This document shows positions 10,101 to 33,287 of a stretch of DNA of 48,000 nucleotides, in pieces. Position numbers and translations under genes: made by a program. The notes beneath the pieces were generated by a model. The model did not search any database, was not told the DNA's origin, and saw only the letters and a program-made list of their open reading frames with translations. Where the stretch lies: assembly GCA_943367755.1 (NCBI GenBank), contig CALRKB020000022.1, forward strand, positions 18,020 to 66,019. The letters are read 5' to 3'. Position 1 is the stretch's first letter; each line of letters begins with the position of its first letter. Origin of the DNA: Rhizobium sp. Q54 (GTDB lineage: Bacteria > Cyanobacteriota > Cyanobacteriia > Pseudanabaenales > Pseudanabaenaceae).

Positions 10101-11291
10101 AGCCCCCAAGGTCATTTCCTTCACTAGTTCAAGCAGTTCATGGAAAGTCGGATTTTCTTCGAACTTGACACGTAGCGCTAGCGTATTGACAAAAAAACCA
10201 ATTAAGGATTCAACTTCTCTACGGTTGCGGTTCGCGATCGGCGAACCAATGACGATATCGTCTTGTCCGCTGTAACGGGAAAGTAGCGCCGCAAATGCAG
10301 CGAACATAGTCATAAACAGAGTCGCACCGGATTGTTGGCTGAGCCTATTGAGTTGCTGGCTTAATCCGTGATCGAGTGGAAATTCAACGAAACTACCGAC
10401 AAATGTCTGAACTGATGGGCGGGGGCGATCGGTAGGTAATTCCAATAGGGGAGGTGCCGCAGCTAACAGTTCTTTCCAAAAGTTGAGTTGTTTTTGGAGG
10501 ATATCTCCAGTCAGCCATTGCCTTTGCCAGCACGCAAAGTCCGCATATTGAATGGGTAAGGATGGTAAATGAGCGGGTTCGCCCGCACAGGAAGATCGAT
10601 ATAGCTCGGACAACTCAGCGATAAATACGCCCATCGACCAACCATCAGAAATAATGTGGTGCATGGCGATTAGCAATACATGAGATGTTTCAGATAACCG
10701 GAGTAAGGTAACTCGGAGCAAGGGAGCCACGGAGAGATCGAAGGCTTGCTGAGACTCAGCGATCGCTAATTGTTTCACTTGTTCGGATTGTTCTGGCTCT
10801 GGCAAGTGTTGTAAATCTATGACTGGGAGTGCGATCGTGGTATCGCTAGCGATCGCCTGGACGGGGGCATCATTCACTAACTTGAAGCTAGTCCGCAGCA
10901 CTTCATGGCGACGCACAATTTCTCGGACAGCCATCTCTAGCGCAGTAACATTCAGAGAACCAAAGAGGCGCAGGGAAACAGGGATATTATAAGTAGCACT
11001 CGCTCCTTCTAAGTGATCGAGGAACCACAGTCGAGATTGCGCAAAGGATACGGGTAAATCTTGGTTTCGCTGAATTGGGATAATAGAATCGCAAGTAGAA
11101 TTAACCTCCAGATTACTTTGCTGGAGAAAGTTGATAACCTCTGCTTTCCGTTCAGCCAGTTCAGCGCGTATTTCAGTTGTCAACGCTCCTTTAGGTGCAT
11201 TACAGCGCAAGCGAATTTCATCTTGACTCTCCAGCCATAATTTGATGTCTGAATTAGCTAAGTTAGATAAGAATTCTTCAATGGTTTTCAT
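7140..11291 (-). CDS. NRPS, termination module: N-terminal TubC-type docking domain, then C-A-T-TE
   Basis: Docking domain [41 protein letters not shown]. C-domain motif [10 protein letters not shown]. A-domain cores [72 protein letters not shown]. T-domain [12 protein letters not shown]. TE motif GGWSFGG. Confidence 0.95.
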   Translation of the reverse strand: [1383 protein letters not shown]

Positions 11292-11360
11292 ATATTCATT
11301 CTGTAATGTTATTTTGAACTGCTGAGGCTAGTGGTTAGATAATGCATCTCGCTATCTTTT

Positions 11361-14300: not shown

Positions 14301-14714
14301 TTGCACTTCAACTTCGCGATCATGATCGAACAACTGACTGAGATCGATTTCTGTTAGTTCTACCGACTGTCCTTCAGTAATTACTTGAAATAAATTCCCA
14401 TCAACTGAAGCAAAAGCAGTTCGCAGCGCTTCATGGCGATCGATGATCGCATTGAGGGTTTGGCTCAGTGCCTCTACATTCAAGTTCCCATGCAATCGCA
14501 CCGCGATCGAGATATTGAAAGGGATATTCGGCTCCAATTGATTCAAGAACCATAATCTTTGCTGAGAAAAAGACAGGGGAGCAGGATCTGAACTTTGTCT
14601 AGGGATAATTTTGGATTTTTTTGCTCCAAGATCGACTTTCTTGATCAGACGTTCTTGTAAGAGGGCGAGCTTTTCAGGAGAGAGATTAGCGATGCGTTGA
14701 TTGAAGTTACTCAT
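11361..14714 (-). CDS. NRPS, one elongation module C-A-T with an acidic C-terminal docking tail
   Basis: C-domain motif [10 protein letters not shown]. A-domain cores [62 protein letters not shown]. T-domain [12 protein letters not shown]. The C-terminal tail [12 protein letters not shown] fits a partner for the TubC-type docking domain of the next protein. Confidence 0.95.
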   Translation of the reverse strand: [1117 protein letters not shown]

Positions 14715-14773
14715 GGTTGGTTTAGTAGGGGAGAATAGAGAAGATTAAAGATTGAAGATCGAAGATTGAATTG

Positions 14774-17700: not shown

Positions 17701-19915
17701 CCTCTGCTAGTAAGTGTTGTAAGTCTACCAAGGGAATAGAGATCGATAGATCGCTGGCAATCTCCTGGACTTGAACACCATCAACCATCTTAAAGCTAGT
17801 CCGCAATATTTCGTGGCGCTGCACGATCGCTTGTACTGCCATTTCTAACGCCGTGACGTCGAGATCGCCCGTCAACTGGAGCGGTTCTGGCATGTTATAG
17901 GTGGCGCTTCCACCTTCTAATTGATCGAGAAACCACAATCTTGTTTGAGCGAAGGATAAAGGTAAAGATTCATCGCGAGGAACTCGCACAATTGGCGGTG
18001 GTACGCGGTCGTTCAGCCATCCTTGTACTCTCATACCAGCTTCCTGATTAGCCTCAATTAATTCGCTGAATTGAGCGATCATAGGCAGTTCAAATAAGCT
18101 CCGCAAAGGCAGTTCTACCCCAAACAGCGATCGCAATTGGATAATTACCTGTGTCGCCAGCAGGGAATGTCCTCCCAACTCAAAGAAGTTGTCATGAATG
18201 CCTACTTGATGGATATTGAGAATTTCTGCCCATAGTTGTGCCAGCATTGCCTGTGTGGGAGTAGCAGGAGGGACAAAATCGGTATACCAATTTAGATCCA
18301 GATCTGGCACGGGTAGAGCCTGGCGATCTACTTTGCCATTGGGAGTTAGTGGCATCGATTCTAAGTAGACAAATGCTCCAGGTATCATATAGTCTGGCAA
18401 CCACTGGTTAAGAAAATCGCGCAAGTTGCTAGTTGTAACTGAGCGATCGGCGATCGCATAGGCAGCTAAATATAAATTTCCCAGGCGATCTGCTCTGGCA
18501 ATTACCACCGCTTCCTGCACTTGGGGATGTTGACTTAGAACCGCTTCAATTTCGCCCAACTCAATCCGAAAGCCGCGAATCTTTACCTGGCAGTCAATCC
18601 GCCCCAGAAATTCGATATTACCATCGGGGAGATAACGGGCGCGATCGCCAGTTTTATATAAACGCGCCGAGTCTGCGGGGTTAAAAGGGTTTGCAATAAA
18701 AGCCTGTGCCGTGAGAGTTGGATTATTCAAATAACCGCGTCCCACCCCAGCACCGCCCACATAAAGTTCGCCCGCCTCACCAATTGGCAAGGGTTGCAAC
18801 TGCGGATCGAGAATATATAATTGGGTATTGGAGACTGGACGACCGATTGGGAGATTTAGGATTTCCGATGCGGGTGGTTGGTAAATTGGATAATGAGTGA
18901 CATCATCCGAACATTCCGTTGGCCCATAGGCATTCATGATTGGAATACTGGGATAATACTCCAGCCACTGACGGCATAACTGGGGAGGCAGGGGTTCACC
19001 TGTAAGTAATAACCACCGCAAATTGGCTAGTTTGTGTCGAATCCCATCAAATTCTATTTGTTGGATAAGTGCGCGTAGTAGTGATGGCACGATCTCCAGA
19101 ATAGAAATGCACTGACGCTCTACAAGAGCAAGTAACTGAGTTGGGTCTGTAGTAATTTCGGTACTAATAATCTCAACTTTGCCACCAACGAGCAAAGCAA
19201 CGAGAAATTGCCAAATGCTAATATCAAAGGTTTGGGATGCTGTTTGGGCGACGATATTGCTAGCACTCAAATTCAAATCCACTATCTTCGCATATAAATG
19301 ATTCACCATCCCCCGTTGTTCGAGCATCGCTCCCTTAGGAGTGCCAGTGGAACCAGAAGTGTATATTACATAGGCTAGATTATTTGGAGTGCAGCGGATC
19401 GGCAGATTTTCCGTCGCACCTTCTACCCGATCTAAATCTTCGAGGCATAACAATTGGGGTTTAGTTTCTAATCCTTCGACAATTGGAGAAATTATCGCTT
19501 CCCATTTCTGCTCAGACAATAGCAACGCCACCTGACTTTGCGCTAATACCTGCTGCGTGCGCGTTGCGGGATAATCGGGATTTAGCGGTAGATATGCTCC
19601 ACCCGCTTTGAACACTGCTAACATCGCTGTTAGAAAATCGATATTGCGATCGCACATCAAGGCAACAATGGTTTCTGCCCCCACACCCAGTTCGACTAAA
19701 TGCCTTGCCCACCGATTTGCACGGGCATTTAATTGGTGGTAGGTTAGCTGTCGATCGTTAAATCTAACGGCGATCGCATCTGGGGTGCGCGATACCTGTT
19801 GCTCGAACAACTGGGAGAAACACTGGTCTAAGGGATAATCAGTCTTGGTATCGTTCCAATTGTGGAGCAACTGCTGCTCCGTGGTACTTAGTAGTGGGAG
19901 GTGCAAATTAGTCAT
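14774..19915 (-). CDS. NRPS, loading plus first elongation module: A-T-C-A-T
   Basis: Starts directly with a C-A-linker-like sequence ([28 protein letters not shown]) and an A domain. Two T domains ([14 protein letters not shown] twice), one C domain ([10 protein letters not shown]), and a second A domain with distinct cores ([44 protein letters not shown]). The ATG overlaps the upstream gene's stop (ATGA at 19912..19915). Confidence 0.95.
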   Translation of the reverse strand: [1713 protein letters not shown]

Positions 19916-20961
19916 GACACAGATACTCCAAATTCTTCTCGTTCTAACCAGGAAACTGGTAGAAATGACTTGATTGTGTCGCCCAGATTTTGTGCGATCG
20001 CGATTTTGTAGGCTAACTGTCCCACTGCTAAATCGAGCACGCCCAATCCAAATGGACTGAAGATCGCGAGTTGGTGATCGTCTTGGCGTGCAGGTGCAAC
20101 ACCATTGAGAATATCGCCTAGAGTACAGCGAATAAAATCGCGATTTCCTGTTTGTTGTTCGGCGAGGTGAATTGATGTTTGGGCGCGGGATACATGATCG
20201 ATATCATCAACAACGTTATCCGCCGCTAAGATGATTTCTGGGGACAAGTCTCGCAGGGAAATATGTAAGATGATCGTGCCGGGGTGACACTGAGAAAGGT
20301 CGGATATGTGCGGTTTGGCGGCGGTGGTGGCAAAAGAAACCACGGCAGAATTCCGAAAAACAGGATCGGATTCTGTAACAATAACTATCTCCAATTTCTC
20401 AGACAATTGCTGACACTTTCGTGTAAATTGTTCGGCGCGTTCTCGGCTCAGATCGTAAACTAGGACGGTTTCAATTTCTGGACAAGTGGTTAAGAGAAAC
20501 CGCAGGATTTCAAAATTAATTAACCCAGTCCCAATCATTCCCAGCGTCGTCAATTTTTGCTGGCCGCGTAATTGTTCCGCCGCGATCGCCGCACTTGCCG
20601 CAGTACGTTTGGCACTGATAATCGAGCTTTCCATAATTGCTTTGGTGTGGCCAGTTTGGGTGGAATTGAGGATTAAAGTAGCCGAAGCTCTTTCCATCCC
20701 CAAGGCGAGATTGTCTGGGAAAGAAGCAATCCATTTAATCCCCGTCGCATTCACCTCACCACCTAAATAAGCAGGTAAAGCAATAATCCGGTCTTTTTCA
20801 TGATTTGGGAATCGCAAAAAGCTGGAATGAGGCAAACAGCTATCACCTTTGGCATGGATTTGATAGGCTAATTTGACAGCTTCCAAGATCTCGCGATCGC
20901 GGTTTTGCAATAGGGTAAAAATCTCATTACCTCTTAAGAGCAGAATGTCATCATAATTCAT
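19912..20961 (-). CDS. sbnB: SbnB-like NAD-dependent dehydrogenase (ornithine cyclodeaminase / mu-crystallin family), L-2,3-diaminopropionate pathway
   Basis: The blocks RIIALPAYLGGEVNATGIKWIASFPDN and MERASATLILNSTQTGHTKAIMESSIISAKRTAASAAIAAEQL parallel S. aureus SbnB as I recall it. The gene is paired with an SbnA-like gene. I prefer the ATG at 20961 (MNYDDILLL), which lies downstream of the neighbour's stop, over the ORF-track start at 21033, which overlaps the upstream gene. Confidence 0.8.
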   Translation of the reverse strand: MNYDDILLLRGNEIFTLLQNRDREILEAVKLAYQIHAKGDSCLPHSSFLRFPNHEKDRIIALPAYLGGEVNATGIKWIASFPDNLALGMERASATLILNSTQTGHTKAIMESSIISAKRTAASAAIAAEQLRGQQKLTTLGMIGTGLINFEILRFLLTTCPEIETVLVYDLSRERAEQFTRKCQQLSEKLEIVIVTESDPVFRNSAVVSFATTAAKPHISDLSQCHPGTIILHISLRDLSPEIILAADNVVDDIDHVSRAQTSIHLAEQQTGNRDFIRCTLGDILNGVAPARQDDHQLAIFSPFGLGVLDLAVGQLAYKIAIAQNLGDTIKSFLPVSWLEREEFGVSVS

Positions 20962-20984
20962 GGCAAATTCCTGAAGATTTCTCT

Positions 20985-22094
20985 TTAATTTAGTGAATAC
21001 ATAGCAGCAGCACCAAAGTGTTCCTTGACCCAACTATCTGTATAAATTGTGTCGAGATAGCGTTCGCCGCGATCGCATAAAATCGCCGCACAAGTGGCAC
21101 CTGCGGGAATCTCTGTCAGCATTTTTCTGATTGCAGATATCACTGCACCCGATGAACCGCCAGCTAAGATAGCCTCACTCCGTAGCAATTGATAACAGCC
21201 ACTAATACATTCCATGTCGGATACGTGTATGACTCGATCCTCTAATCCAGGTTGGAACAATTCTGGAACTCGCGCCGCACCATGTCCGGGAATCAATCGT
21301 TTGCTGCGTTTGTCGCCAAAAATGACACTGCCTTTGGCATCAACAGCAATAATTTTGGTTTTGAGATTGTGGCTCTTGACATATTCCGAGCAGCCGCGCA
21401 GGGTGCCACACGTACCAGTAGCGCAGAATAAGTAGTCCAATTTACCGTCGAGAGCAGTAGCAATTTCGTGCATGGTCTGATGATGCGCGCGGACATTATT
21501 CATATTGGCGTACTGTTGACACCAAAAGCTCTTGGGAATTGAATTCAGTAATGACTTGACTCGATTAATACGAGCGGGTAGAAAATCACCAGTGATTGGG
21601 TCTGGTTCAGTGACTACATCAACTTCTGCGCCATAAGTTTTAAGGATTTTGATGTTCTGTTGGGTAGTTTTAGGATCGACAACACAGATTAGATGTAAAT
21701 TGAGTACGGCACAGGCTTGGGCTAGGCCAATTCCTAAATTTCCCGAACTGGATTCAATTATTGTATATCCGGCCTGAATATCTCCATTCTCAAATGCGCT
21801 TTTCAGCATATTTAGAGCTGGCCGATCTTTAACGCTACCACCAGGATTAAACATTTCCAACTTACCGAATAGTTGGAAATCAGCATCTTTGAAAACTTTT
21901 TCTAATTTAATTAGTGGTGTATTCCCCACCGTTGATAAAATCCCCGAATTCAATGGAAGGGCATTATGTTTTGAGGAGATGCCTACTAAATCGTGATCGC
22001 TTTGCTGCGTAACTATCAGTTGGGGGATTATAGGGGGAGCAGTTTTACTAGATCGCGAATGAGGTGGCTTAGTTTTGAACATTGGTTTTGACAT
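20985..22094 (-). CDS. sbnA: SbnA-like PLP-dependent enzyme (cysteine-synthase fold), L-2,3-diaminopropionate pathway
   Basis: The blocks GNTPLIKL, NPGGSVKDRPA, IIESSSGNLGIGLA, VVDPKTTQQNIKILKTYGAEV, IIAVDAKGSVIFGDK and ILCDRGERYLDTIYTDSWV closely track SbnA as I recall it. The likely start is the ATG at 22094 (MSKPMFK), preceded by a GGAG; the ORF-track start is 22163. Confidence 0.85.
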   Translation of the reverse strand: MSKPMFKTKPPHSRSSKTAPPIIPQLIVTQQSDHDLVGISSKHNALPLNSGILSTVGNTPLIKLEKVFKDADFQLFGKLEMFNPGGSVKDRPALNMLKSAFENGDIQAGYTIIESSSGNLGIGLAQACAVLNLHLICVVDPKTTQQNIKILKTYGAEVDVVTEPDPITGDFLPARINRVKSLLNSIPKSFWCQQYANMNNVRAHHQTMHEIATALDGKLDYLFCATGTCGTLRGCSEYVKSHNLKTKIIAVDAKGSVIFGDKRSKRLIPGHGAARVPELFQPGLEDRVIHVSDMECISGCYQLLRSEAILAGGSSGAVISAIRKMLTEIPAGATCAAILCDRGERYLDTIYTDSWVKEHFGAAAMYSLN

Positions 22095-22529
22095 ATCTAT
22101 TTTTCTCCGTGATGTCAGATATCTTGATTTTGTTTGAGCATTTCCCAAATCCAACTTCCACACAAATGGCCAAGTTCCTAGGAAGTTGATTTGAGGATTT
22201 ACTTAGTGAATGTGATGCCCAACTAGCATTTCAGTTGCTGCTTCCCTAACTGCAACAATAAGAAGTTCAGTAACCCTATTGAGATATTTCTGTCTGCTCA
22301 AAGCCCCAATTTTAGACCTTTGAGATCTCCTAATTATTTTTGTTCTGATGCCTTAAAATTGAGTAATTCTTCTCGCCTATCAAATTGGCTATAAAAACTC
22401 ATTTATAAAATAAAACCGATCTCTTTGCATTCATATAGCTAAGTATTCATTACTGATTGGGAATCAATTGTGAGTGAGATCAATCATTAACTGTGATTCT
22501 AGTCACATCTTGAAAATACAAATCAAAAT

Positions 22530-23052: not shown

Positions 23053-24612
23053 GTGGAAATTAACTTGTTGGCTGGTAGTGCTAGCGATTGGTCAGGTGAT
23101 GGTTTGGCGATCGCGCTATTTCAGCAAGATGGGGAAGATACTGGCATACTCAGTACGGCACTAATCGATCTAGATACGCATAAGCTTGCAGGTACTCTCC
23201 AGGAACTAGTTAGCGAAACCGAATTTAAAGGGGAGATGGGATCGACGGCTAACGCTAGAGTCGGGGCAAATGCCACTATTCGCAAAGTGATGCTAATTGG
23301 CCTGGGTGAACCATCTAAGGCGACGGAAGACACTTGGCGTAAAGCCGCAGCCCAAGCAGCTAAATGGGGTATTCAGTCTAAATGCAAGAGTTTGGCTCTA
23401 TCTGTACCTCTGTATAACCAGGACGAAGCGCTGACAACGCAGTCTTTAGCTGAAGGGATTTTGCTTGCTACGCATCAGGATAAACGCTTTAAATCGAAAG
23501 GTGACGGCAAGAACGATACTAAAAGTGCTGACGGTGCCAAATCTGAAATCAAACTAGAACGAGTCGATCTACTTGGCTTTGCTGCACCCGCCGCTAGAGA
23601 TGGCTTGGAGAAAGCCCAAAAGATCTGTAGTGGCGCGATCGCCGCACGAGAACTAGTGTCAGCTCCAGCCAATGTCGTAACGCCTATAACCTTGGCCGAG
23701 ACTGCCAGAGCGATCGCTGTGACATACAAAGATTGCATGAGTGTCAAAATTCTGGAAAAAGCGGAATGCGAAGCTCTAGGTATGGGCGCATTTCTTGGTG
23801 TTGCCCAAGCCTCCGATCTGCCGCCTAAGTTTATTCATCTCACCTATAAGCCAGAAGGTAACGAATCTCCCAAGCATAAGCTGGCCATTATTGGCAAGGG
23901 TATCACCTTCGACTCCGGGGGGCTGAATATCAAAGCGGGTGTGGGCAGCAGCATTGAAATGATGAAAACAGATATGGGTGGAGCTGCCGCTACGCTCGGT
24001 GCCGCAAGCGCGATCGCCCAACTCCGCCCCAGCGCAATCGAAGTCCACTTCATCATTGCTGCTTGCGAAAACATGATCAGTGGCAAGGCAATTCACCCTG
24101 GCGACATTCTTACCGCCTCTAACGGCAAAACCATCGAAGTGAATAATACCGATGCGGAAGGACGACTTACCCTCGCTGATGCGCTTGTGTATGCGGATAA
24201 GTTAGGTGTGGATGCGATCGTCGATCTCGCGACCCTAACAGGTGCCTGCGTTGTGGCATTAGGAGATAGCATTGCGGGTCTATGGTCAAACAGTGACGAG
24301 CTAGCAGCCCAAATCCAGGCTGCCTCCCAAAAGGCAGGGGAAAAATTCTGGCGCATGCCATTGGAGGAACCCTACTTCGATCAATTGAAGTCCGTGGTGG
24401 CCGATTTTAAGAATACTGGTGCTCGGGCAGGCGGCTCAATTACGGCATCTTTATTCCTGAAACAGTTTGTTGATAAGACTCCTGCTTGGGCACATCTTGA
24501 TGTGGCGGGTCCAGTGTGGACAGAGAAAGAGAATGGTTACCTTAATGCGGGTGGGACTGGCTATCCCGTGCGTACCCTGGTTAATCTGGTTACGAGCATT
24601 GCAGATAGCTAA
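23053..24612 (+). CDS. pepA: Leucyl aminopeptidase (M17 family)
   Basis: 519-aa ORF (GTG start) with the M17 signature [14 protein letters not shown] and [24 protein letters not shown]. Confidence 0.95.
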
Positions 24613-24711: not shown

Positions 24712-24736
24712 CCTCTTCCCGTGAAGAGGTTTTTTT
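24712..24736 (+). terminator. Rho-independent terminator downstream of pepA
   Basis: CCTCTTC-CCGT-GAAGAGG followed by TTTTTTT, about 100 nt after the pepA stop. Confidence 0.65.
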
Positions 24737-24931: not shown

Positions 24932-25222
24932 ATGATAACAAAAACTGCACCCCAGATAACAACCGATCTCGAACAGTTTTACTTGGAGCTGTTGAAAGAC
25001 CCGATGCTGCAAGAGCGGCTTAAAGCAGCAACAGATCCAGATAGTCTTTGCGAACTAGCTGTAAAGTTGGGAGACGAGAAAGGCTACTTTTTCACTAAAG
25101 AGGAAGTCTTAGCTGCAATGGCAATAGAAGTTGCCATTGGGAATGAGTGGATTGAGGCTCTGGCCGATGATGGTGAAGGTGAGGATGTGCCGATGACATA
25201 TACACTAAGTGCCTGCTACTAA
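24932..25222 (+). CDS. RiPP precursor peptide with a Nif11-like leader and a short Thr/Ser/Cys/Tyr-rich C-terminal core
   Basis: 96-aa ORF with AAGGAGA 7 nt upstream of the ATG. The N-terminal segment LEQFYLELLKDPMLQERLKAATDPDSLCELAVKLGDEKGYFFTKEEV fits the Nif11-type leader pattern. The C-terminus is ...WIEALADDGEGEDVPMTYTLSACY. It is the first gene of the YcaO operon. Confidence 0.8.
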   Translation: MITKTAPQITTDLEQFYLELLKDPMLQERLKAATDPDSLCELAVKLGDEKGYFFTKEEVLAAMAIEVAIGNEWIEALADDGEGEDVPMTYTLSACY

Positions 25223-25268
25223 ATTTTGTGATAGTTATAGCGTCTTTTAGAATCTAAAAGAGATTTAT

Positions 25269-25326
25269 TTATGGGGGTGAAGGGGTTCTACCCCTTCTTG
25301 GGGGCGTTGCCCCCAAATCCCCTATT
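25269..25326. repeat. G/C-tract nested-hairpin element, copy 1
   Basis: TTATGGGGGTGAAGGGG-TTCTA-CCCCTTCTTGGGGG-CGTTG-CCCCCAAATCCCCTAT, containing AAGGGG/CCCCTT and TTGGGGG/CCCCCAA stems. A related copy lies at 26667..26751. Confidence 0.7.
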
Positions 25327-25500
25327 CGTTGGCAATAGAAGTTGCCATTGGAAGCTTATTTTTTGCCTTCCTAGTAAGTATTTTGATTTAACTTTTTCTG
25401 ATAAAGATTTTAGCCGAAACCCCTGAAATGGTAACACGGTATCTCCATCTCAGTTGGAAGTTTTAGGGTCGGTAGTTCATCTCAAATAAGAGCAAACTAT

Positions 25501-26613
25501 ATGAAGTATTCCATGGAAAGTTACCTAAAAATCGTTGTCTCCCAACTACATCCTGACCTGGTTTCTCCCGAAGCTTTGTCCCACATCCAGTCTCTCACCC
25601 AAGTTTTACCTTCTTCGTCTTTGGCTGGGCTTGAATGTCGTTTGGGAGCAAACCAATCGGGAGTTGACTTCCAAGTCCGTCTCCCATGCCTTGACCAAAA
25701 ATTACCAGAAAGTTTTTCAATCGCTCCAGCATGGCAATTTTTGCAAGACTTTTATCAGAATTGGACGATACCCAATTCTTCACTGCAGCAAGAGATTAGA
25801 AATGTTGGGCTGGAATTTGACGTGAACGAACGGATGCCTCAAGTCCCCATTCCCTCTATCTTCCTGCAATTTAGAGAGGAAAATCCTCTTGATGCTGAAA
25901 GACTACTACAAATGGTCAGGCTCCTTAACCATCAGATTTCTCCACTGCTTGAGTCGAATCTGCGCTGTTGTGCTGATTCCTTACCTGTTGGGACAATGAT
26001 TAGCCATCTCGGAGCAATGTTATCTCGCGTAGCCAAAGCTGTCAGGGTGAATGTCCAGGGAATTTCTCCAAATCAATTATTAGATTACCTAATGCAAATT
26101 GGCTGGACAGATTCAATACATACATTCTCTACTCTTGTATCGACTGTATCAGAGTTCACTGATACAGTTATCCTAAGTTTTGATATGGGAGATACTATTC
26201 TGCCTAGAATTGGTTTGGAATGTTTTCTGAATAAACAGCCCTACACTGAACCACGATGGGAGCGATTTTTAGACTATTTGGTTGAAAAAGGAGTGTGTAC
26301 TCCAGCTAAGAAAAATGCTTTTCTGACTTGGCCTGGATTGTCCCAGAAACCATCTGTTCCAGACCTATGGCCCAGTAATATTAGCGTTGGAGATCGCTTC
26401 TTAGGTGCTAGAGCGTCTAGCGTCTTTTGGCGAAAGGTTAGCCATATAAAACTGATCTATCAACCAGGTATGCCATTGGAAGCCAAAGGATATCTAGCTT
26501 TTGGTCATAACTGGTTTGCTTCTGATGTCCTGACTGAGAAGAAGCAAAAATCTGAAGAGTTTAAGGAGCAAAATTTGCTAATTAGCGACACAACTCAACC
26601 AGTTGTTTCCTAA
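25501..26613 (+). CDS. Orphan 370-aa protein of the RiPP operon (function unknown; diverged ABBA-type prenyltransferase is only a hypothesis)
   Basis: Long ORF co-directional with the operon. I recognise no family motif. A recurring strand-like motif is present (AGLECRLG, VGLEFDVN, IGLECFLN, plus AVRVNVQG, HIKLIYQP, AKGYLAF). There is no DDxxD motif. Confidence 0.6.
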   Translation: MKYSMESYLKIVVSQLHPDLVSPEALSHIQSLTQVLPSSSLAGLECRLGANQSGVDFQVRLPCLDQKLPESFSIAPAWQFLQDFYQNWTIPNSSLQQEIRNVGLEFDVNERMPQVPIPSIFLQFREENPLDAERLLQMVRLLNHQISPLLESNLRCCADSLPVGTMISHLGAMLSRVAKAVRVNVQGISPNQLLDYLMQIGWTDSIHTFSTLVSTVSEFTDTVILSFDMGDTILPRIGLECFLNKQPYTEPRWERFLDYLVEKGVCTPAKKNAFLTWPGLSQKPSVPDLWPSNISVGDRFLGARASSVFWRKVSHIKLIYQPGMPLEAKGYLAFGHNWFASDVLTEKKQKSEEFKEQNLLISDTTQPVVS

Positions 26614-26666
26614 ATAATCTAGCCTTAAGCGTCAATATAGCGCTTTTCAATTAAGAAAGGGTTCGC

Positions 26667-26751
26667 TTATGGGGTGAAGGGGCGGAACCCCTTCTTGGGG
26701 ATGCGTACGGAACGTAGGCGTAGACGTAGACGTTAGCCCCAAATCCCCTAT
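26667..26751. repeat. G/C-tract nested-hairpin element, copy 2 (with an internal CGTAG(G/A)-rich insert)
   Basis: CTTATGGGGTGAAGGGG-CGGAA-CCCCTTCTTGGGG...GCCCCAAATCCCCTATA shares both ends with copy 1. The centre holds ATGCGTACGGAACGTAGGCGTAGACGTAGACGTTA. Confidence 0.7.
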
Positions 26752-26783
26752 ACAAAGTATTAAAAAATGAGGGAAGAGACACC

Positions 26784-27809
26784 ATGATTAATAGATCGAT
26801 AGTAGTAAACAGAAATCAGATTGATGTTGCTATTTCAAAGGCACTCAATTTTATCGCTCGAAATCAACTGCCTTACGGAGAAATTAAAACCTACTTTTCC
26901 ACTGATGAAAGGATGAAAAATCGGTGTGTATTTGATAGCTCACCATTTGTCACAGCATTGGTTGTATACTGTATCAGTTTTGTGGAAGATCCAAAAGTCA
27001 AGGAAATAACCCGAAAAGCAGTCCAATTCCTTGTAGAGGAGAAAGAAATACCAGGTCTGTGGCGATTTTGGTCTTCGAGAAACCCGAAGCACAAGAGACT
27101 TCCTCCTGATTTAGACGATACTGCCTGCATTGCCTTCATTTTAAAGCAATATTATTCTCCTTTGCTTTATTCATTTCTTTTTGGTTCTAATCAAACAATT
27201 CTTCTCAATAATAGAAATGAACAGGGACTTTTTTATACTTGGATCGTACCGCCCGGACATCAAAATAATTGGGTTGATAGTGTAGTTAATGCTAATGTGC
27301 TATTTTACCTGGGCGATTGCGAAGAAACTAAGGCAGTCTGCGATTATTTGCAAGATCTGGTATTAAGCGATCGCGAAAAGGGTTCCGATCGTTCCTATCT
27401 CAGAGATTTATGCCTTTACTATTTCATGTCTAGAGCATATTTTCAGGGTGCGCGCAGACTTAAGGACGCAAAAGACGCTGTCTCAAACAAAACGATTTCC
27501 TTGCAACAAGAAGATGGTTCTTTTGGTGACGATCTGAGTACTGCTCTTGCGGTTTGTACACTGCTCAACTATCAGTATAGTGATGAAACCATTCTTGATC
27601 GCGCAGCTCAGAGTCTTGTGGAGCGCCAGCAAGAAGATGGGGCTTGGTCAAAAATCGCTATGGTAACTGGTTGCTTTTGGACTGAAGGCGCAGGAGAAAC
27701 CGGAAATTGGCTAGCAGGTTATTGGGGATCTGAGGAGCTAACAACTGCTCTCTGCATTGAAGCTTTGGCAAAATATCGAGCTTTTGAAAAAAACGTTTGT
27801 CACCCCTAA
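26784..27809 (+). CDS. Single-domain squalene-hopene-cyclase / prenyltransferase-repeat (alpha/alpha-toroid) protein with a DxDDTA motif; class II terpene-cyclase-like
   Basis: 341 aa. PPDLDDTACIAFIL (D109-L-D-D-T-A, nt 27108..27125) mirrors the SHC catalytic DxDDTA. QW-like repeats are present: LVERQQEDGAWS, ISLQQEDGSFG, FIARNQLPYGE, FLVEEKEIPGLWRFW. Confidence 0.7.
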   Translation: MINRSIVVNRNQIDVAISKALNFIARNQLPYGEIKTYFSTDERMKNRCVFDSSPFVTALVVYCISFVEDPKVKEITRKAVQFLVEEKEIPGLWRFWSSRNPKHKRLPPDLDDTACIAFILKQYYSPLLYSFLFGSNQTILLNNRNEQGLFYTWIVPPGHQNNWVDSVVNANVLFYLGDCEETKAVCDYLQDLVLSDREKGSDRSYLRDLCLYYFMSRAYFQGARRLKDAKDAVSNKTISLQQEDGSFGDDLSTALAVCTLLNYQYSDETILDRAAQSLVERQQEDGAWSKIAMVTGCFWTEGAGETGNWLAGYWGSEELTTALCIEALAKYRAFEKNVCHP

Positions 27810-27868
27810 TTAATCGCATTTAAGTTCAGATATAACTTTCAAAACCCAAAATCTCAGAGAGGTAATTT

Positions 27869-30103
27869 ATGTTCAAAAAACCCCAATTTAAGCCTCATTT
27901 CCACATTGAAGTTGTAGAACCCAGTACCGTCTATCTCATGAGCGAGCAAGGGCATTTTGCTTTGAGTGGTAACTTCTATACCTTGTTAACTCCCTTGCTA
28001 AATGGTCAGTATACAGTTGATGAAATTGTTGAGCGGCTAAAAGCACATAAATCACTGTTTGGTATTTATCACGCATTAACCAACTTGGAAAGTCAGGGCT
28101 ACCTTACCGAAGCTGTAGACATCCCGACTGAAGTGGCAGCCTTTTGGAGTTTGCAGGGCGTAGAGCCTGGAATAGCCGTTAGTAAACTTCAAGATACCAG
28201 AGTTTCTGTAACTGCCTTCGGTAAAGTGAAAACAGAACCGTTTATCTCTGCGTTAGAGTCTCTGAACATCGAGGTTAGTAACGATGGAGACCTCACCGTA
28301 GTATTGACTGATGACTATCTACAACCGGGTTTAGGTGAGTTTAACTCCCAATCCTTACTCAGTCAAAAGCCTTGGATGCTTGTCAAACCTGTCGGTGCAA
28401 CCATCTGGGTCGGACCAATTTTTGTTCCGGGTCAAACGGGTTGTTGGCAATGTTTAGCTCAACGCTTGCAGACTAATCGTGAAGTCGAAACTGTCGTCGG
28501 TCAGCAAAAAGGAATTGTAGATCCCTTTCCCACCTCTCGGTCAATTTTACCAACCCACTTCCAGATCGGCGTAAATTTGGCAGCAACGGAAGTTGCCAAA
28601 TGGATAGCCCAGGAGGGAAACCACGAACAGCTAGAGGGCAAGTTGTTGACATTGGATCTAGCCTCACTGTCCATGCAGCACCACGTTTTAGTTAAACGTC
28701 CACAATGTCCAGCTTGTGGAGAGAAAGCTGCTTTTGAGTATCACAAATCCAAACCAATCGTGCTCGAAAGTCAGAAGAAGCGATTCACCGCAGATGGCGG
28801 CCACCGCTGTTTCACACCAGAGCAAACGCTTAAGAAATACGAACATCATATCAGCCCGATTACGGGAGTAGTCCGCGCTCTTCCCAAAAAGAAGATTGAT
28901 AGCGATCTAATTCACGTTTACGGTGCCGTTCACTCGCTGAGAAAAAATCTGGGTAGTTTAGCCGATCTACGTAGTAGTCTACGTCAAAACAGTGCTGGCA
29001 AGGGAAAGACGGACCAGCAGTCCAAAGTAAGCGGTCTTTGTGAAGCGATTGAGCGATATTCTGGCGTTTTCACGGGCGAAGAAATCTGCATCAAAGGTAC
29101 TTATACCCAACTGGAATCAGCCGCCATTCACCCAAATACATGTATGCTCTTTAGCGCCAACCAATACCAAAACCGCCAAGATTGGAACCAACAGCACGGC
29201 AGTTTTGCCTGGGTACCCAAACCCTTTAACGAGGAGCGAGAAATTGAGTGGACATCGGTTTGGTCGCTGACTCACCAACAGTTCAAGTATGTGCCAACTG
29301 CTTACTGTTACTATGGCTATCCGCTTCCCGATGACCATCGCTTCTGTCGCGGAGATTCCAACGGTAATGCTGCGGGCAATACCTTAGAAGAAGCGATTCT
29401 GCAAGGATTTATGGAGTTGGTAGAACGAGACTGCGTGGCGTTATGGTGGTACAACCGCATCAAACGACCCGCTGTGGATTTAAACAGTTTTGATGAACCC
29501 TACCTGTTAGACCTGAAAGACTATTACCAAACTCAATACCGCGACCTCTGGGTGTTGGATATCACTAACGATCTGAATATTCCCTGCTTTGCCGCGATTT
29601 CTCGACGAACTCAAGGATCTTCTGAGGAGATACTTTTGGGCTTTGGCACTCATTTCGATGCTAAAGTTGCCATGCTTAGGGCAGTTACTGAGATGAACCA
29701 AACATTGGGCATCGAACTGGACAATGGCAAAGCCGTGCCTGACGATCCAGATTGGCAGTATTGGCTTAGGAATGCCACATTAGAAAACCAGCCTTACCTA
29801 GTGGGAGATCGCCAAGTTCCTGTAAAAGTTTACTCAGATTATCCACGATACTGTCAAGATGACCTACGACAAGACGTACTCACCTGCGTAGACATTGCCG
29901 CACGACACGGCATGGAAACCCTTGTCCTCGACCAAACCCGCCCAGATATTGGTTTAAACGTCGTCAAGGTGATCGTTCCTGGAATGCGCCACTTTTGGAA
30001 TCGGTTTGCTCCAGGGCGGCTGTATGACGTTCCCGTGAGCATGGGTTGGTTGCAAGAACCTCTGACAGAAGAACAACTCAACCCAATACCGATGTTTTTC
30101 TAA
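27869..30103 (+). CDS. Fused E1-like/RRE plus YcaO cyclodehydratase of the cyanobactin heterocyclase type (PatD/LynD/TruD-like)
   Basis: 744 aa. Long blocks match PatD/LynD as I recall them: FKPHFHIEVVEPSTVYL, LLNGQYTVDEIVERL, VVLTDDYLQP, GCWQCLAQRLQTNREVE, RPQCPACG, GKGKTDQQSKVSGLCEAIERYSG, GDSNGNAAGNTLEEAILQGFMELVERD, DQTRPDIGLNVVKVIVPGMRHFW, and the C-terminal NPIPMFF. Confidence 0.9.
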   Translation: MFKKPQFKPHFHIEVVEPSTVYLMSEQGHFALSGNFYTLLTPLLNGQYTVDEIVERLKAHKSLFGIYHALTNLESQGYLTEAVDIPTEVAAFWSLQGVEPGIAVSKLQDTRVSVTAFGKVKTEPFISALESLNIEVSNDGDLTVVLTDDYLQPGLGEFNSQSLLSQKPWMLVKPVGATIWVGPIFVPGQTGCWQCLAQRLQTNREVETVVGQQKGIVDPFPTSRSILPTHFQIGVNLAATEVAKWIAQEGNHEQLEGKLLTLDLASLSMQHHVLVKRPQCPACGEKAAFEYHKSKPIVLESQKKRFTADGGHRCFTPEQTLKKYEHHISPITGVVRALPKKKIDSDLIHVYGAVHSLRKNLGSLADLRSSLRQNSAGKGKTDQQSKVSGLCEAIERYSGVFTGEEICIKGTYTQLESAAIHPNTCMLFSANQYQNRQDWNQQHGSFAWVPKPFNEEREIEWTSVWSLTHQQFKYVPTAYCYYGYPLPDDHRFCRGDSNGNAAGNTLEEAILQGFMELVERDCVALWWYNRIKRPAVDLNSFDEPYLLDLKDYYQTQYRDLWVLDITNDLNIPCFAAISRRTQGSSEEILLGFGTHFDAKVAMLRAVTEMNQTLGIELDNGKAVPDDPDWQYWLRNATLENQPYLVGDRQVPVKVYSDYPRYCQDDLRQDVLTCVDIAARHGMETLVLDQTRPDIGLNVVKVIVPGMRHFWNRFAPGRLYDVPVSMGWLQEPLTEEQLNPIPMFF

Positions 30104-30120
30104 ATTTAAGGATCTTTCAT

Positions 30121-31581
30121 ATGTCACAGCAATTCCTCCTATCTCTTAAAAAAGACATTTCCTGCATTGAATCAGACGAAACCGATCGACTCATTCTCCA
30201 ATCCTTAACCCATGCTTTGACCTTTAAACAGGTACAGTCGGGATTGAAAACAGCGCTCAGGACGCTAGCAGATGGTGGTGCCACCTTGGCAGAACTGAGC
30301 CAAATGGTACAGCAGGACGATGGAAATTTTCCTGCACTCCAGTTTTATACCTACCTGCAAAGATTCACCCACTGCGGCTGGCTTTGTCATTCAGCCTTAG
30401 CAGAAGGTCTGCCGATCGCCATTGCTATACCCATCACCTCAGATTATCAATTTCCTTATACTGAGGTCGTTGTCGAGTCCAGGTATATACTTTCCCGCTT
30501 TGCCTATTGCCACTCGGTTGAAGGGCAACTGGTACTGGAGTCACCGCTGTCTCAATCACAAGTGCTATTACTGAATTGGCAAGGAGCAGTTCTGGTGACA
30601 CAGTTAGCCAGACCTCAAAGCTGTCATGACATCCTGGCTGCAGTTCCAGGAATTTCCCTAAAAACAGTGCAGCAGTTTGTCAGCCTACTTTTAGGTGCCC
30701 AAATGCTCTCTGAGGTGGGTGAAGACAGTACTATCCAAGAACAAGCCAATACTACCCTCGCCCAATGGGAATTTCACGACCTTCTGTTTCATAGCTGCAG
30801 CCGACAAGGGAGACATGCCAATCCTTTCGGCAGAACTTATCGCTTTTTAGGCAAAATTGAGCCATTGCCTGCAATCAAACCTCGGATGTCTGAGGAGGCG
30901 ATCTCGCTATATAAACCTGACCTGGAAATCCTCAAAACGACGGAGGTATCGTTGACTCAGATTCTAGAAACAAGAAAGTCAATTCGGGAGTACGGAGAAA
31001 CTCCGATCGCTGCCCAAAAACTAGGAGAGTTTCTCTACCGCTGTGCCAGAGTCAAACACTTGAAGCAGGAAGAGCATGGAGAAATTACTCGCCGTCCTTA
31101 TCCCGGTGGAGGGGCACTATACGAACTAGAACTTTACCCCATAGTCAACCGTTGTGAGGGAATTTCCTCTGGTTTATATCACTACGATCCTTTAGCACAT
31201 CAACTGTGTCGGATTTCTGACAGAACCGAAACTGTAGATGCGCTACTCAAAAATGCTTGGCAATCAATGGGGCAGCAAGGTATACCTCAAGTTCTGATTG
31301 TGATTGCCGCCCGTTTTCAAAGGATGGCTTGGAAGTACGAATCGATGGCTTATGCAGCGATGCTCAAGAACGTCGGGGTTCTGTACCAAACTATGTACCT
31401 GGTGGCAACAGCTATGGAATTAGCTCCTTGCGGTCTTGGAGGTGGCAATTCTGATTTATTTGCGAAGGCGGCAGGATGTGACTACTACTCCGAAACGTCT
31501 ATCGGAGAGTTTGCTTTGGGTAGTCGGCTACAAGCCTTGTTGCTTCCAGATTACGAATCCACTATCACTCCTCGTGGATGA
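30121..31581 (+). CDS. SagB-type FMN-dependent azoline dehydrogenase (stand-alone oxidase, ThcOx-like architecture)
   Basis: Nitroreductase-fold core: TRKSIREY, RRPYPGGGALYELELYP, VIAARFQRMAWKYESMAYAAMLKNVGVLYQTMYLVA, CGLGGG. It has a long N-terminal extension. I prefer the ATG at 30121 (AAGGA upstream, 17 nt after the YcaO stop) over the ORF-track start at 30046, which overlaps the YcaO gene. Confidence 0.85.
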   Translation: MSQQFLLSLKKDISCIESDETDRLILQSLTHALTFKQVQSGLKTALRTLADGGATLAELSQMVQQDDGNFPALQFYTYLQRFTHCGWLCHSALAEGLPIAIAIPITSDYQFPYTEVVVESRYILSRFAYCHSVEGQLVLESPLSQSQVLLLNWQGAVLVTQLARPQSCHDILAAVPGISLKTVQQFVSLLLGAQMLSEVGEDSTIQEQANTTLAQWEFHDLLFHSCSRQGRHANPFGRTYRFLGKIEPLPAIKPRMSEEAISLYKPDLEILKTTEVSLTQILETRKSIREYGETPIAAQKLGEFLYRCARVKHLKQEEHGEITRRPYPGGGALYELELYPIVNRCEGISSGLYHYDPLAHQLCRISDRTETVDALLKNAWQSMGQQGIPQVLIVIAARFQRMAWKYESMAYAAMLKNVGVLYQTMYLVATAMELAPCGLGGGNSDLFAKAAGCDYYSETSIGEFALGSRLQALLLPDYESTITPRG

Positions 31582-33287
31582 AGCCGACTGACTCGTTTAA
31601 AAGGAGCAAAACTGTGAATTTTGTTAGACACTTGCTACAAGCCTCCTGGGCTACAGTCACGATCACCGCGATCGCAGGAATAATTAGTGGTGGATGTACT
31701 GTCTTTCTGATCGCTCTCATCGCTACAGCGATGCGTCAATCTCAGCCACCTTCTCTCCTGGAGATCGGGGGATTTATTGGGTTGTGCTGCATTCAACTGA
31801 TAACTCGCTTCATCTCGGAGGTGTCTTTAACTCGACTAGGCCAGGAAATGACATGCCACCTTCAGATGCTTCTAAGTCAACGCATTCTTGCCTCATCGCT
31901 CCGTCAGATCGAAACCATGGGTGCACCTGTACTGCTAGCATCTCTGACTGAGGATATCCAGGTCATATCGAACTTCGTCACGTTCATTCCTTTTGTCTGC
32001 ATCAATATTGTCTTTGTCAGTGGCTGTCTTCTCTATCTAGTCTGGCTTTCAGGAATACTCTTTCTTGTCCTGCTAGTCTTTCTGGGGCTGGGAATCATCA
32101 GCTTTCAGTTCCTTCAGACAAAAGCGATCTCCAAACTTAAATTAGCCCGCCAGCAGCAAGATCGTCTATTCCAACACTTCCGCGCCATGACCGAGGGCAT
32201 CAAGGAACTCAAGATGCATAGCGATCGCCGCCAGGCATTTCTCAATGAGGATCTAAAACTTACTGCTATTACCGCTAAAAACTACAAAATTGCCGGGATG
32301 ACAATCTACATTGGGGCAGCTAGTTGGGGGCAAGCGTTACAGTTCCTAATTATGGGCGTATTGCTGTTTCTTATGCCTAGTCTCCAACCAATTTCTCGCT
32401 CGGTTTTGTCAGCTTATGTGCTCACATTTATTTACATGGGCCCCTACGTGGGGCAAATTTTGAGCTTGTTGCCTAACTGGGGGAAAGCAAAGATTGCTTT
32501 ACTTAAAATCTCCGACCTCGGACTGCTCCTGGAGAGAAGTGCTGAACCTAGTGCTTTTAGCGTATCTGAGTCTGGTTCATCCTGGCAAAAGTTAGAGTTG
32601 CTGGGAGTTACCCATATCTACCGCTCTGAGCACGATGATAGTAACTTTACTCTCGGCCCACTCAATCTGACATTAAGTGCAGGCAAACTAGTTTTTATTA
32701 TTGGAGGAAATGGTAGCGGTAAATCAACCTTAGCCAAGTTACTAACTGGGTTATACCTTCCCGAATTTGGAGAAATTCGGCTTGACAGTCGTTTGATTGA
32801 TGATGCTAATAGGGAGTGGTATCGGCAGCATTTTTCGGTGGTATTCTCAGATTTTTATTTATTTGAACGTTTCCTAGGACTGCAGCAAGTTGACGAACGG
32901 GTACAGGAATATTTATTCAAACTTCAACTTGAGCATAAAGTCAAGGTTGAAGATGGTAAACTCTCAACTATAAATCTATCGCAAGGACAGCGTAAACGGC
33001 TGGCACTCCTGACAGCTTATCTAGAAGATCGCCCTATCTATTTATTTGATGAATGGGCTTCTGACCAAGACCCTATCTTTAAAAAGACTTTCTACGAAGA
33101 ACTTTTACCAATACTCAAGGCTAAAGGCAAAACCGTTTTAGTTATTAGCCATGACGAGAAATATTTTGGTGTAGCCGACCAGATCCTGAGATTAGATTAC
33201 GGTCAGATTGTTGAAAACAGTTTTGGACTAGCGAGGCAAGAAGAGTGTTTTTGTGGAAGCGATAACTTGGCCGATCGCCTGCCGTAA
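31578..33287 (+). CDS. Cyclic-peptide-type ABC exporter (SyrD/PvdE-like half transporter), no C39 peptidase domain
   Basis: 569 aa, with an N-terminal six-helix-like TMD followed by an NBD: Walker A GGNGSGKST, signature LSQGQRKRLAL, Walker B IYLFDEWASDQD. The ATG overlaps the oxidase stop (ATGA). Confidence 0.9.
   Translation: MKPTDSFKRSKTVNFVRHLLQASWATVTITAIAGIISGGCTVFLIALIATAMRQSQPPSLLEIGGFIGLCCIQLITRFISEVSLTRLGQEMTCHLQMLLSQRILASSLRQIETMGAPVLLASLTEDIQVISNFVTFIPFVCINIVFVSGCLLYLVWLSGILFLVLLVFLGLGIISFQFLQTKAISKLKLARQQQDRLFQHFRAMTEGIKELKMHSDRRQAFLNEDLKLTAITAKNYKIAGMTIYIGAASWGQALQFLIMGVLLFLMPSLQPISRSVLSAYVLTFIYMGPYVGQILSLLPNWGKAKIALLKISDLGLLLERSAEPSAFSVSESGSSWQKLELLGVTHIYRSEHDDSNFTLGPLNLTLSAGKLVFIIGGNGSGKSTLAKLLTGLYLPEFGEIRLDSRLIDDANREWYRQHFSVVFSDFYLFERFLGLQQVDERVQEYLFKLQLEHKVKVEDGKLSTINLSQGQRKRLALLTAYLEDRPIYLFDEWASDQDPIFKKTFYEELLPILKAKGKTVLVISHDEKYFGVADQILRLDYGQIVENSFGLARQEECFCGSDNLADRLP

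Follow-up and report, generated by a model that had tools for sequence, protein, structure and literature searches.

We analyzed a 48,000-nucleotide stretch of cyanobacterial DNA (the window), positions 18,020 to 66,019 of contig CALRKB020000022.1 in assembly GCA_943367755.1. It contains six co-directional open reading frames (ORFs) on the plus strand, here called A to F, which form a candidate operon for a peptide that is made by the ribosome and modified after translation (RiPP). Gene A (24932..25222) encodes a 96-aa precursor with a match to Pfam Nif11 (E 1.9e-8). Gene B (25501..26613) encodes a 370-aa protein that is a predicted ABBA (PT-barrel) peptide prenyltransferase, based on its AlphaFold2 (AF2) fold and Foldseek matches. 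Gene C (26784..27809) encodes a 341-aa single-domain class II terpene cyclase of the AstC/drimenol-synthase-like clade, assigned from its AF2 fold and a family profile. The remaining three genes were assigned with Pfam and NCBIfam models. Gene D (27869..30103) encodes a 744-aa fused E1-like/RRE and YcaO cyclodehydratase of the cyanobactin D type. Gene E (30121..31581) encodes a 486-aa FMN-dependent azoline oxidase of the ThcOx/CyaGox type (TIGR03605), and gene F (31578..33287) a 569-aa ABC exporter of the cyclic-peptide-transporter family (TIGR01194) that lacks a peptidase domain.

An ORF check of the window reproduced exactly the coordinates, the shared direction, and the ATGA overlap of E and F given in a first-pass annotation of this DNA. 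That annotation had also described the genes as tightly spaced. This is true of C to F, where the gaps are 59 nt (C-D), 17 nt (D-E), and -4 nt (E-F), but not of A-B (278 nt) or B-C (170 nt). Each of the two wide gaps contains one copy of a palindromic repeat.

Gene content and boundaries, homology, folds, motif conservation, synteny, fusions, and the enrichment of C-terminal aromatic residues were established by computation. The genome of Pseudanabaena sp. PCC 6802, whose annotated proteins include matches to B and C at more than 90% identity, contains all of A to F in the same order, in flanks that are wholly different from those of the window: a catalase and Uma2 on one side, and dihydroorotate dehydrogenase, GvpG, and DapB on the other. 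Because PCC 6802 has A to F between different flanks, the limits of the unit are exactly A to F. The cluster is a discrete operon and not a chance arrangement. Rearranged forms of the six-gene unit are found in Cyanosarcina and Prochloron.

Genes B and C and their linkage

The 341-aa product of gene C had been noted at first pass as having a class II terpene-cyclase fold, and structure prediction bore this out. The AF2 model (pLDDT 92.5) has the (alpha/alpha)6 beta-domain fold. Foldseek matched it to the cyclase domain of the drimenol synthase 9m7d (E 2e-14, TM 0.72) and to the single-domain cyclases 8pak and MstE 6sbb (TM 0.70). The best matches also include single-domain cyclases of Cystobacter and Archangium, drimenyl diphosphate synthase, and squalene-hopene cyclase. 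The Pfam match to SQHop_cyclase_C was weak (E 2.3e-5) and under the curated cut-off; C homologues carry the precomputed Pfam label PF28380, AstC-like_C. The C family profile matched the AsDMS cyclase domain with an E value of 3.7e-25 (92 bits, positions 35-309 of 318), AstC with 2e-11, and MstE with 0.01 (18 bits).

A catalytic acid motif, DLDDTA, occupies residues 109-114 of C (27108..27125, plus strand). D109 and D111 are invariant in the family alignment, and D-x-D-D is kept in nearly all of the 90 family members examined. The motif aligns with DDLDTT of AsDMS, and the column of the AsDMS D333N mutant is that of D111. Because DLDDTA is conserved and aligned with the catalytic Asp of drimenol synthase, C looks, from its sequence, like a catalytically competent class II cyclase that shares more than the fold with its matches. 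LanC-like cyclases, protein-prenyltransferase beta subunits, and glycoside hydrolases were also considered for C. Foldseek ranks them low (E >= 1e-5), and the DxDD motif is present; these identities were rejected.

Gene B had been called an orphan, and its sequence alone gives no family. No Pfam or NCBIfam model matched it at E <= 0.1, and a family profile built from B and 33 homologues matched no PDB chain at E <= 10. By sequence, B does not belong to the cyanobactin F, CloQ/NphB, or DMATS families. However, its AF2 model (pLDDT 85) has five alpha-alpha-beta-beta repeats, and each of its 50 best Foldseek matches in the PDB is an ABBA prenyltransferase (E ~2e-6, probability 1.0, TM ~0.5), among them EpzP, NphB/Orf2, IptA, AmbP1, DMATS, PriB, and AtaPT. 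A search with the profile found 3,841 family representatives at 50% identity, 1,450 of them below 1e-30. The orphan label is therefore no longer apt. The alignment has about 34 invariant residues, rich in Arg, Lys, Tyr, Asp, and Glu, on or beside the predicted barrel strands. They would fit diphosphate binding, in a pattern typical of ABBA enzymes. Two other roles considered for B, that of a protease and that of a pure leader-binding protein, were rejected on its predicted fold.

A Nif11 precursor gene lies directly before the B homologue in 26 of 57 loci, including essentially all of those in which B is at least 44% identical. The same gene order, with the B homologue after a Nif11-type precursor, is seen in cyanobacteria, Beggiatoa-like gammaproteobacteria, and other phyla. 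This context is consistent with a peptide prenyltransferase. Fusions are common in the family. Many members of about 634 aa carry a C-terminal S-adenosylmethionine (SAM) methyltransferase domain, and others are 707-737 aa long. Over its full length, B is 37% identical to the N-terminal half of one family member, P0280 (718 aa), whose C-terminal half has weak similarity to C. The model and its context suggest that B is an ABBA-fold peptide prenyltransferase and the logical partner of cyclase C, and we predict that it depends on the Nif11 leader.

One related locus is densely packed with RiPP genes (L005, a TARA scaffold of 21.9 kb; L numbers denote related loci). It has more than 12 Nif11 precursors, most of which end in Trp, together with two prenyltransferase-methyltransferase fusions, two stand-alone B homologues, a radical SAM protein, a sulfotransferase, and several WelO5-like iron/2-oxoglutarate enzymes.

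B and C are also linked to each other. The two genes lie side by side in the window, PCC 6802, Cyanosarcina radialis, Prochloron, L027, and L122. In L013 and L055, B stands next to a truncated or partial C, and in L006 and L089 the two are about 2.3 kb apart. Several metagenomic loci, some of them non-cyanobacterial, also have the two close together or adjacent. Of the closest C homologues, at least 13 lie on contigs whose lengths equal those of contigs with B homologues, and for one such pair the NCBI locus tags, JO235_04630 and JO235_04635, adjoin each other. L035, L037, and L038 encode single proteins of 717-737 aa in which a B-type domain and a class II cyclase domain are fused. Fusions of this kind are found in Iningainema, Rivularia, and Aerosakkonema, and two of them stand beside Nif11-like peptides. 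The fused cyclase domain belongs to a clade other than that of C; it is MstE-like (E 2e-72 to MstE) and has a DADS motif. The folds, the order A-B-C, and the fused homologues together show the arrangement of a RiPP precursor gene with a prenyltransferase that adjoins, or is fused to, a class II cyclase. Whether the two extra genes co-occur with YcaO genes and Nif11-like precursors elsewhere had been proposed at first pass as a check, and the neighborhood test was positive for both B and C.

In sister clusters with the composition Nif11-B-YcaO-oxidase, the gene after B is not a cyclase (L016 10893-12053; L009 11117-12329; L002 11295-12104). In Nostoc L016 it belongs to the geranylgeranyl-reductase family (TIGR02032, 207 bits, above cut-off), and the same gene carries a frameshift in L009. 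The Kovacikia cluster has a SAM methyltransferase there. The position after B is a slot in which genes for lipid or peptide tailoring are exchanged. Because a geranylgeranyl-reductase-family gene can occupy the slot, we suggest that B installs a long isoprenoid chain that is tailored later. Cyclase-bearing relatives in Cyanosarcina, Nostoc FACHB-892, and Prochloron have extra flavoproteins of amine-oxidase/HpnE-like and FAD-monooxygenase-like types (L008 5382-6983, L013 11535-13013, L021 5554-6870), which are missing from the window cluster. They may oxidize or epoxidize the terpene.

The wider C family has other partners. Polyprenyl-synthase-like proteins are neighbors in 25 loci and small RiPP-like ORFs in 18, and there are several UbiA fusions. 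Because the family is repeatedly paired with varied types of prenyltransferase, it behaves as a general prenyl-chain-cyclizing module. Many soil metagenome loci among L063-L138 (for example, L077 3101-4168 and L128 156-461) have the C homologue next to a polyprenyl-synthase-like protein and an ORF of about 100 aa, the latter with weak similarity to a Frankia-type RiPP precursor family. Such loci may be a split form of the ChrPC-type system, in which a prenyltransferase resembling isoprenyl diphosphate synthases of the trans type (trans-IDS) is joined to a cyclase. C-family cyclase domains also occur within very large multidomain proteins (L074 5241-9614, L081 1729-4464, L094, and L100), beside UbiA prenyltransferase, thioesterase, PhyH, and TPR domains. 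This arrangement suggests membrane-associated meroterpenoid machinery that is unrelated to RiPPs.

Precursor, azole enzymes, and leader removal

Precursor A begins with a Nif11-type leader, continues with an acidic linker (EWIEALADDGEGEDVP), and ends in the core (M)TYTLSACY. The predicted core octapeptide, TYTLSACY, is encoded at 25196..25219 on the plus strand. It has one Cys, two Thr, and one Ser as heterocyclizable residues, plus Tyr91 and the C-terminal Tyr96, and is the likely site both of azole formation (Cys95, possibly Ser/Thr) and of Tyr prenylation. The core contains no Trp, and neither do the last 23 residues of the precursor; the sole Trp, W73, is in the linker. The PCC 6802 orthologue ends in ...VPITYTLSACY. 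In other relatives the leader is kept and the tail is hypervariable, with Tyr at or near the C terminus, as is invariably the case for the precursors in the B subgroup with a YcaO gene. Among 36 distinct precursor tails beside B homologues, 20 end in an aromatic residue (Tyr or Trp), where 2.4 would be expected (P ~1e-14). A is not a PatE-type precursor with flanking protease recognition sequences. It is of the Nif11 type, with its core at the extreme C terminus and no follower. At the place where its relatives read AMGG-EY, A reads AIGN-EW, so that Gly-Asn stands in the position of Gly-Gly.

The first copy of the structured palindromic repeat lies just 3' of the precursor gene (25271..25325, fold energy -38.4 kcal/mol, z -3.8; repeat D1/I2). 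The second lies in the B-C spacer (26669..26745, about -38 kcal/mol, z -2.6). Four matches were found against none expected, and both copies contain the nested palindrome TATGGGGTGAAGGGG...CCCCTTCTTGGGG...CCCCAAATCCCCTAT. The repeat after the precursor gene is also kept in PCC 6802. In contrast, the B-C gap there is only 13 nt long and the second copy is missing; that copy is an insertion specific to the window genome. The repeat after the precursor gene may be an attenuator or an RNA-stability hairpin. The element may be a small mobile repeat with a second role in attenuation. At 25330-25351 in the A-B spacer, 22 nt of the precursor coding sequence (25119-25140, codons MAIEVAIG) are repeated exactly. 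The spacer copy reads ...LAIEVAIGSLFFAFLVSILI and then a stop, and the PCC 6802 spacer differs there. The duplicate could be what is left of a second precursor gene, or it could stem from recombination.

The first-pass annotation had read D as a PatD/LynD/TruD-like heterocyclase, E as an azoline oxidase of the SagB/nitroreductase type, and the locus as a linear azol(in)e peptide pathway. All three assignments hold. D has winged helix-turn-helix, E1-like, and YcaO domains (YcaO E 8e-108 in Pfam; TIGR03882 E 2e-51 in NCBIfam) and matches MusD, LynD, and TruD over its full length (E 6e-264 to 3e-257). E has the complete ThcOx architecture in Pfam, with HTH_57, ThcOx, and nitroreductase domains, and it matches SagB TIGR03605 (E 6.5e-55) and CyaGox 5lq4 (E 1e-116). 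These domain and full-length matches join a cyanobactin-type heterocyclase and oxidase to a Nif11 precursor. F matches the cyclic-peptide exporter model TIGR01194 with 449 bits against a cut-off of 286, and is kept in L008, L013, L016, and PCC 6802.

The absence of a protease and of a C39 domain from the window had also been claimed. The scan of the 30 largest ORFs of the window turned up no subtilisin, Peptidase_S8, PatA, PatG, or C39 domain, which holds both for the six cluster proteins and for 20 further large ORFs, and the flanks of the PCC 6802 copy hold no subtilisin or PatA/PatG gene. Pfam and NCBIfam detect no C39 domain in F, whose overlap with E leaves no room for an N-terminal domain. 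With Gly-Asn in the precursor and no C39 in F, the cluster lacks the pairing of a Gly-Gly cleavage site with a C39-peptidase ABC transporter. The claim is too broad in one respect, because the window does hold an M17 leucyl aminopeptidase gene (23053-24612) directly upstream of the precursor gene. This enzyme was rejected as the leader peptidase. Its gene has its own strong intrinsic terminator (24712-24736, a 7-bp stem and T7), and neither the 138 related loci nor the PCC 6802 flanks contain it. Because it is absent from all related loci, it is a housekeeping neighbor of the cluster.

A separate nonribosomal peptide synthetase (NRPS) cluster lies on the minus strand at 5834-22163. It encodes three NRPS proteins and a major facilitator superfamily exporter. 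The last NRPS protein has a TubC_N docking domain and a thioesterase. An ornithine-cyclodeaminase-like protein and a pyridoxal phosphate enzyme form a pair resembling SbnB/SbnA that would provide 2,3-diaminopropionate. The NRPS cluster is not present beside the PCC 6802 copy of the RiPP cluster. A joint cluster of NRPS and RiPP genes, or of the NRPS genes and F, was considered and rejected, because F overlaps E and moves with the RiPP genes elsewhere and the NRPS genes do not.

Proposed pathway and alternative explanations

With moderate confidence, we read the locus as a self-contained operon for a Nif11-leader thiazole/oxazole-modified microcin (TOMM), a linear azole peptide, to which a two-enzyme isoprenoid module has been added that places a cyclized prenyl chain on the peptide. 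The 96-aa precursor would be made first, and its Nif11 leader would recruit the enzymes. D would then cyclodehydrate core Cys95, and possibly Ser/Thr, and E would aromatize the azolines. Docked on the leader, B would move a C15 or C20 prenyl group from farnesyl diphosphate (FPP) or geranylgeranyl diphosphate (GGPP) to Tyr96 or Tyr91. C would protonate the terminal alkene of the peptide-bound chain with its DLDD acid (D111) and cyclize the chain to a bicyclic or polycyclic unit, which may be drimane- or labdane-like. Because the closest relatives of C are drimenol-synthase-like, a drimane-type bicycle is the most economical guess. Finally, an unlinked protease would cut off the leader, and F would export the product. 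We infer the acceptor residue, the chain length, the order of steps, the cyclized product, and the route of leader removal. The product is probably a small thiazole-containing peptide bearing a cyclized terpene lipid, likely an azole peptide with a cyclized farnesyl or geranylgeranyl group on Tyr.

Several observations weigh against this pathway. B has no detectable sequence similarity to any characterized prenyltransferase, and its fold match is moderate (TM ~0.5, rmsd ~7 Å). Trp is the acceptor in the characterized precedents, and the core TYTLSACY has none. The closest characterized relatives of C (drimenol synthases, drimenyl-diphosphate synthases, and AstC) act on free FPP and not on a chain bound to a peptide. 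Distant C homologues mostly have no B neighbor; B is found in only 2-3 of 80 metagenome loci. The cluster contains no polyprenyl diphosphate synthase gene. Leader removal also lacks an explanation, since Gly-Asn replaces the Gly-Gly of the relatives and no peptidase accompanies the cluster.

The shared use of free FPP by all of the best C matches raises the alternative that C cyclizes free FPP or GGPP to a drimenyl- or copalyl-type diphosphate, which is then used by B or released as a separate terpenoid. The polyprenyl-synthase-like neighbor that many distant C homologues have instead of B points the same way. However, diphosphates of the drimenyl and copalyl type are not allylic, as ionization by an ABBA prenyltransferase requires. 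C, as a single domain of 341 aa, lacks the HAD phosphatase domain of drimenol synthases. The polyprenyl-synthase-like neighbors often stand with small RiPP-like ORFs and may themselves be ComQ/ChrPC-type peptide prenyltransferases. Moreover, B-family domains are covalently fused to cyclases, and the characterized fusion, as described in a review, cyclizes after transfer (PMC13290415). We consider this alternative unlikely.

Another alternative is that the prenyl group added by B is no longer than C5 or C10, as with the cyanobactin F enzymes, and that C is no cyclase in this pathway but an inactive relic or a protein for lipid binding, immunity, or scaffolding. The donor of most characterized peptide ABBA prenyltransferases is dimethylallyl diphosphate or geranyl diphosphate (GPP) (PMC13290415), and the Nif11-dependent enzyme MppC prefers GPP (PMC12715784). 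C is truncated in L013, and some family members have DLDV. Against this, D-x-D-D and the whole fold are kept among B-linked C homologues at 60-80% identity, and the geranylgeranyl-reductase-family gene in the slot of sister clusters points to a long chain. Even with a shorter chain, a class II enzyme could still cyclize a geranyl group. A short-chain B beside an inactive C is, in our view, quite unlikely.

PatF is a catalytically inactive ABBA protein. This precedent, the modest structural match of B, and its lack of a sequence link to assayed prenyltransferases would suit a B that is no prenyltransferase, but a PT-barrel for leader binding or another leader-dependent reaction, with C acting on something unrelated; we regard this as very improbable given the invariant, diphosphate-binding-type residues at the predicted barrel strands, the three kinds of isoprenoid-tailoring partner of B (two cyclase clades and geranylgeranyl reductase), and the description of NctPC, a fused homologue type, as an ABBA-fold prenyltransferase of low similarity to cyanobactin enzymes (PMC13290415).

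Relation to known systems

The first-pass annotation knew of no characterized RiPP pathway with a tailoring enzyme of this kind. That statement is out of date. Tailoring of ribosomal peptides by a prenyltransferase and a cyclase was first described in 2024 by Hubrich et al., according to two later sources (PMC13290415, PMC13647313). The first, a 2026 review, describes NctPC as an ABBA-fold prenyltransferase of low similarity to the cyanobactin enzymes, fused to an MstE-like cyclase (PMC13290415). NctPC geranylgeranylates Trp and then cyclizes the chain (Hubrich et al. 2024, Chem 10:3224, as cited in that text). ChrPC is described there as performing the same chemistry with a trans-IDS-like prenyltransferase, and PMC13647313 lists steromaze as a product among the known terpene-RiPP hybrids.

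A second claim that did not stand is that a cyanobactin locus has been re-tooled here in a special way. Lack of the proteases has already been described for the NHLP/Nif11 TOMM group, whose clusters have cyanobactin-like D proteins and no PatA/PatG proteases (Cox et al. 2015, PMC4603692). Like that group (Haft, Basu and Mitchell 2010; Cox et al. 2015, PMC4603692), the window cluster has a Nif11 leader, a fused E1-like/YcaO D protein, a SagB-type dehydrogenase, core Cys/Ser/Thr residues, and no PatA/PatG. It differs in having Gly-Asn instead of Gly-Gly, a transporter without C39, and the extra prenyltransferase and cyclase module.

The cyanobactin pathways (pat, tru, lyn, mus, and thc) share with the window a D protein similar to LynD/TruD/MusD and an E protein similar to ThcOx/CyaGox, both over their full length, and ABBA-fold prenylation is a cyanobactin trait too. 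However, the window has no PatA/PatG protease or macrocyclase and no PatE-type precursor. B has no sequence match in Pfam, NCBIfam, or the PDB, and prenylation in the window is probably leader-dependent. A parallel in that respect is MppC, a lanthipeptide Trp C5-geranyltransferase of Moorena producens with an ABBA fold, which depends strictly on the Nif11 leader and contacts it through aromatic residues near position 336-340 (PMC12715784). Like MppC, which we compared from its description, B is predicted to be a soluble ABBA enzyme that acts on a Nif11 precursor, and in the corresponding position it has F339 preceded by the invariant H336 and W338. In contrast, MppC is found in a lanthipeptide cluster and not a YcaO cluster, and has no cyclase partner. 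The best matches of C, which are the drimenol synthase AsDMS, the drimenyl diphosphate synthase SsDMS, and AstC, share with it the beta-domain class II fold and the aligned catalytic Asp motif, but they have an N-terminal HAD domain and use free FPP, whereas C is a stand-alone 341-aa protein in a RiPP operon.

In the literature searched, no paper was found on a YcaO enzyme together with a terpene cyclase and a prenyltransferase, and none on PCC 6802 and a cyanobactin. Cyclic isoprenoid units have reportedly been predicted, in the abstract of the 2024 study, for the proteusin, Nif11, and lasso families. The cluster type may already figure in the bioinformatic survey of Hubrich et al. (2024). 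The locus is a genome-mining lead and not a new biological category; the conceptual precedent exists, and the chemical steps are those we deduce.

Few cyclized terpene groups on ribosomal peptides have been characterized. The six genes are a compact candidate that can be expressed directly, with a nine-residue core that would join azole and polycyclic isoprenoid chemistries. A stand-alone cyclase and a stand-alone leader-guided prenyltransferase would also be simpler biocatalysts than the fusions, and the analysis gives a prenyltransferase assignment to a very large family that has no Pfam or NCBIfam model. More tentatively, the products may be the first ribosomal peptides to join YcaO azoles with a Tyr-bound cyclized terpenoid, and a second class II clade, the AstC/drimenol-synthase-like one, may have been recruited independently to the Nif11-dependent ABBA family. 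Because a cyclase, a geranylgeranyl-reductase-family enzyme, or a methyltransferase shares the slot after the prenyltransferase, this tentative view includes a large, modular, and unnamed family of Nif11 isoprenoid lipopeptides, with about 3,800 prenyltransferase representatives.

The nearest known systems are the prenyltransferase-cyclase (PC) maturases NctPC and ChrPC, as the secondary sources present them. NctPC and the window share an ABBA peptide prenyltransferase, with low similarity to cyanobactin enzymes, and a single-domain class II cyclase in a RiPP cluster. In NctPC the two activities are fused, whereas in the window they are separate genes. The fused PC-type enzymes are MstE-like with a DADS motif, whereas C is AstC/drimenol-synthase-like with DLDD (92 bits to AsDMS, 18 bits to MstE). 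NctPC modifies Trp, whereas the acceptor in the window is likely Tyr (Tyr91 or Tyr96), which close relatives keep. The window also adds a YcaO heterocyclase and an azoline oxidase to what those texts describe for NctPC and ChrPC. The locus is thus an uncharacterized variant of the PC RiPP systems, set apart by its split genes, its cyclase clade, its probable Tyr acceptor, and its YcaO/oxidase chemistry.

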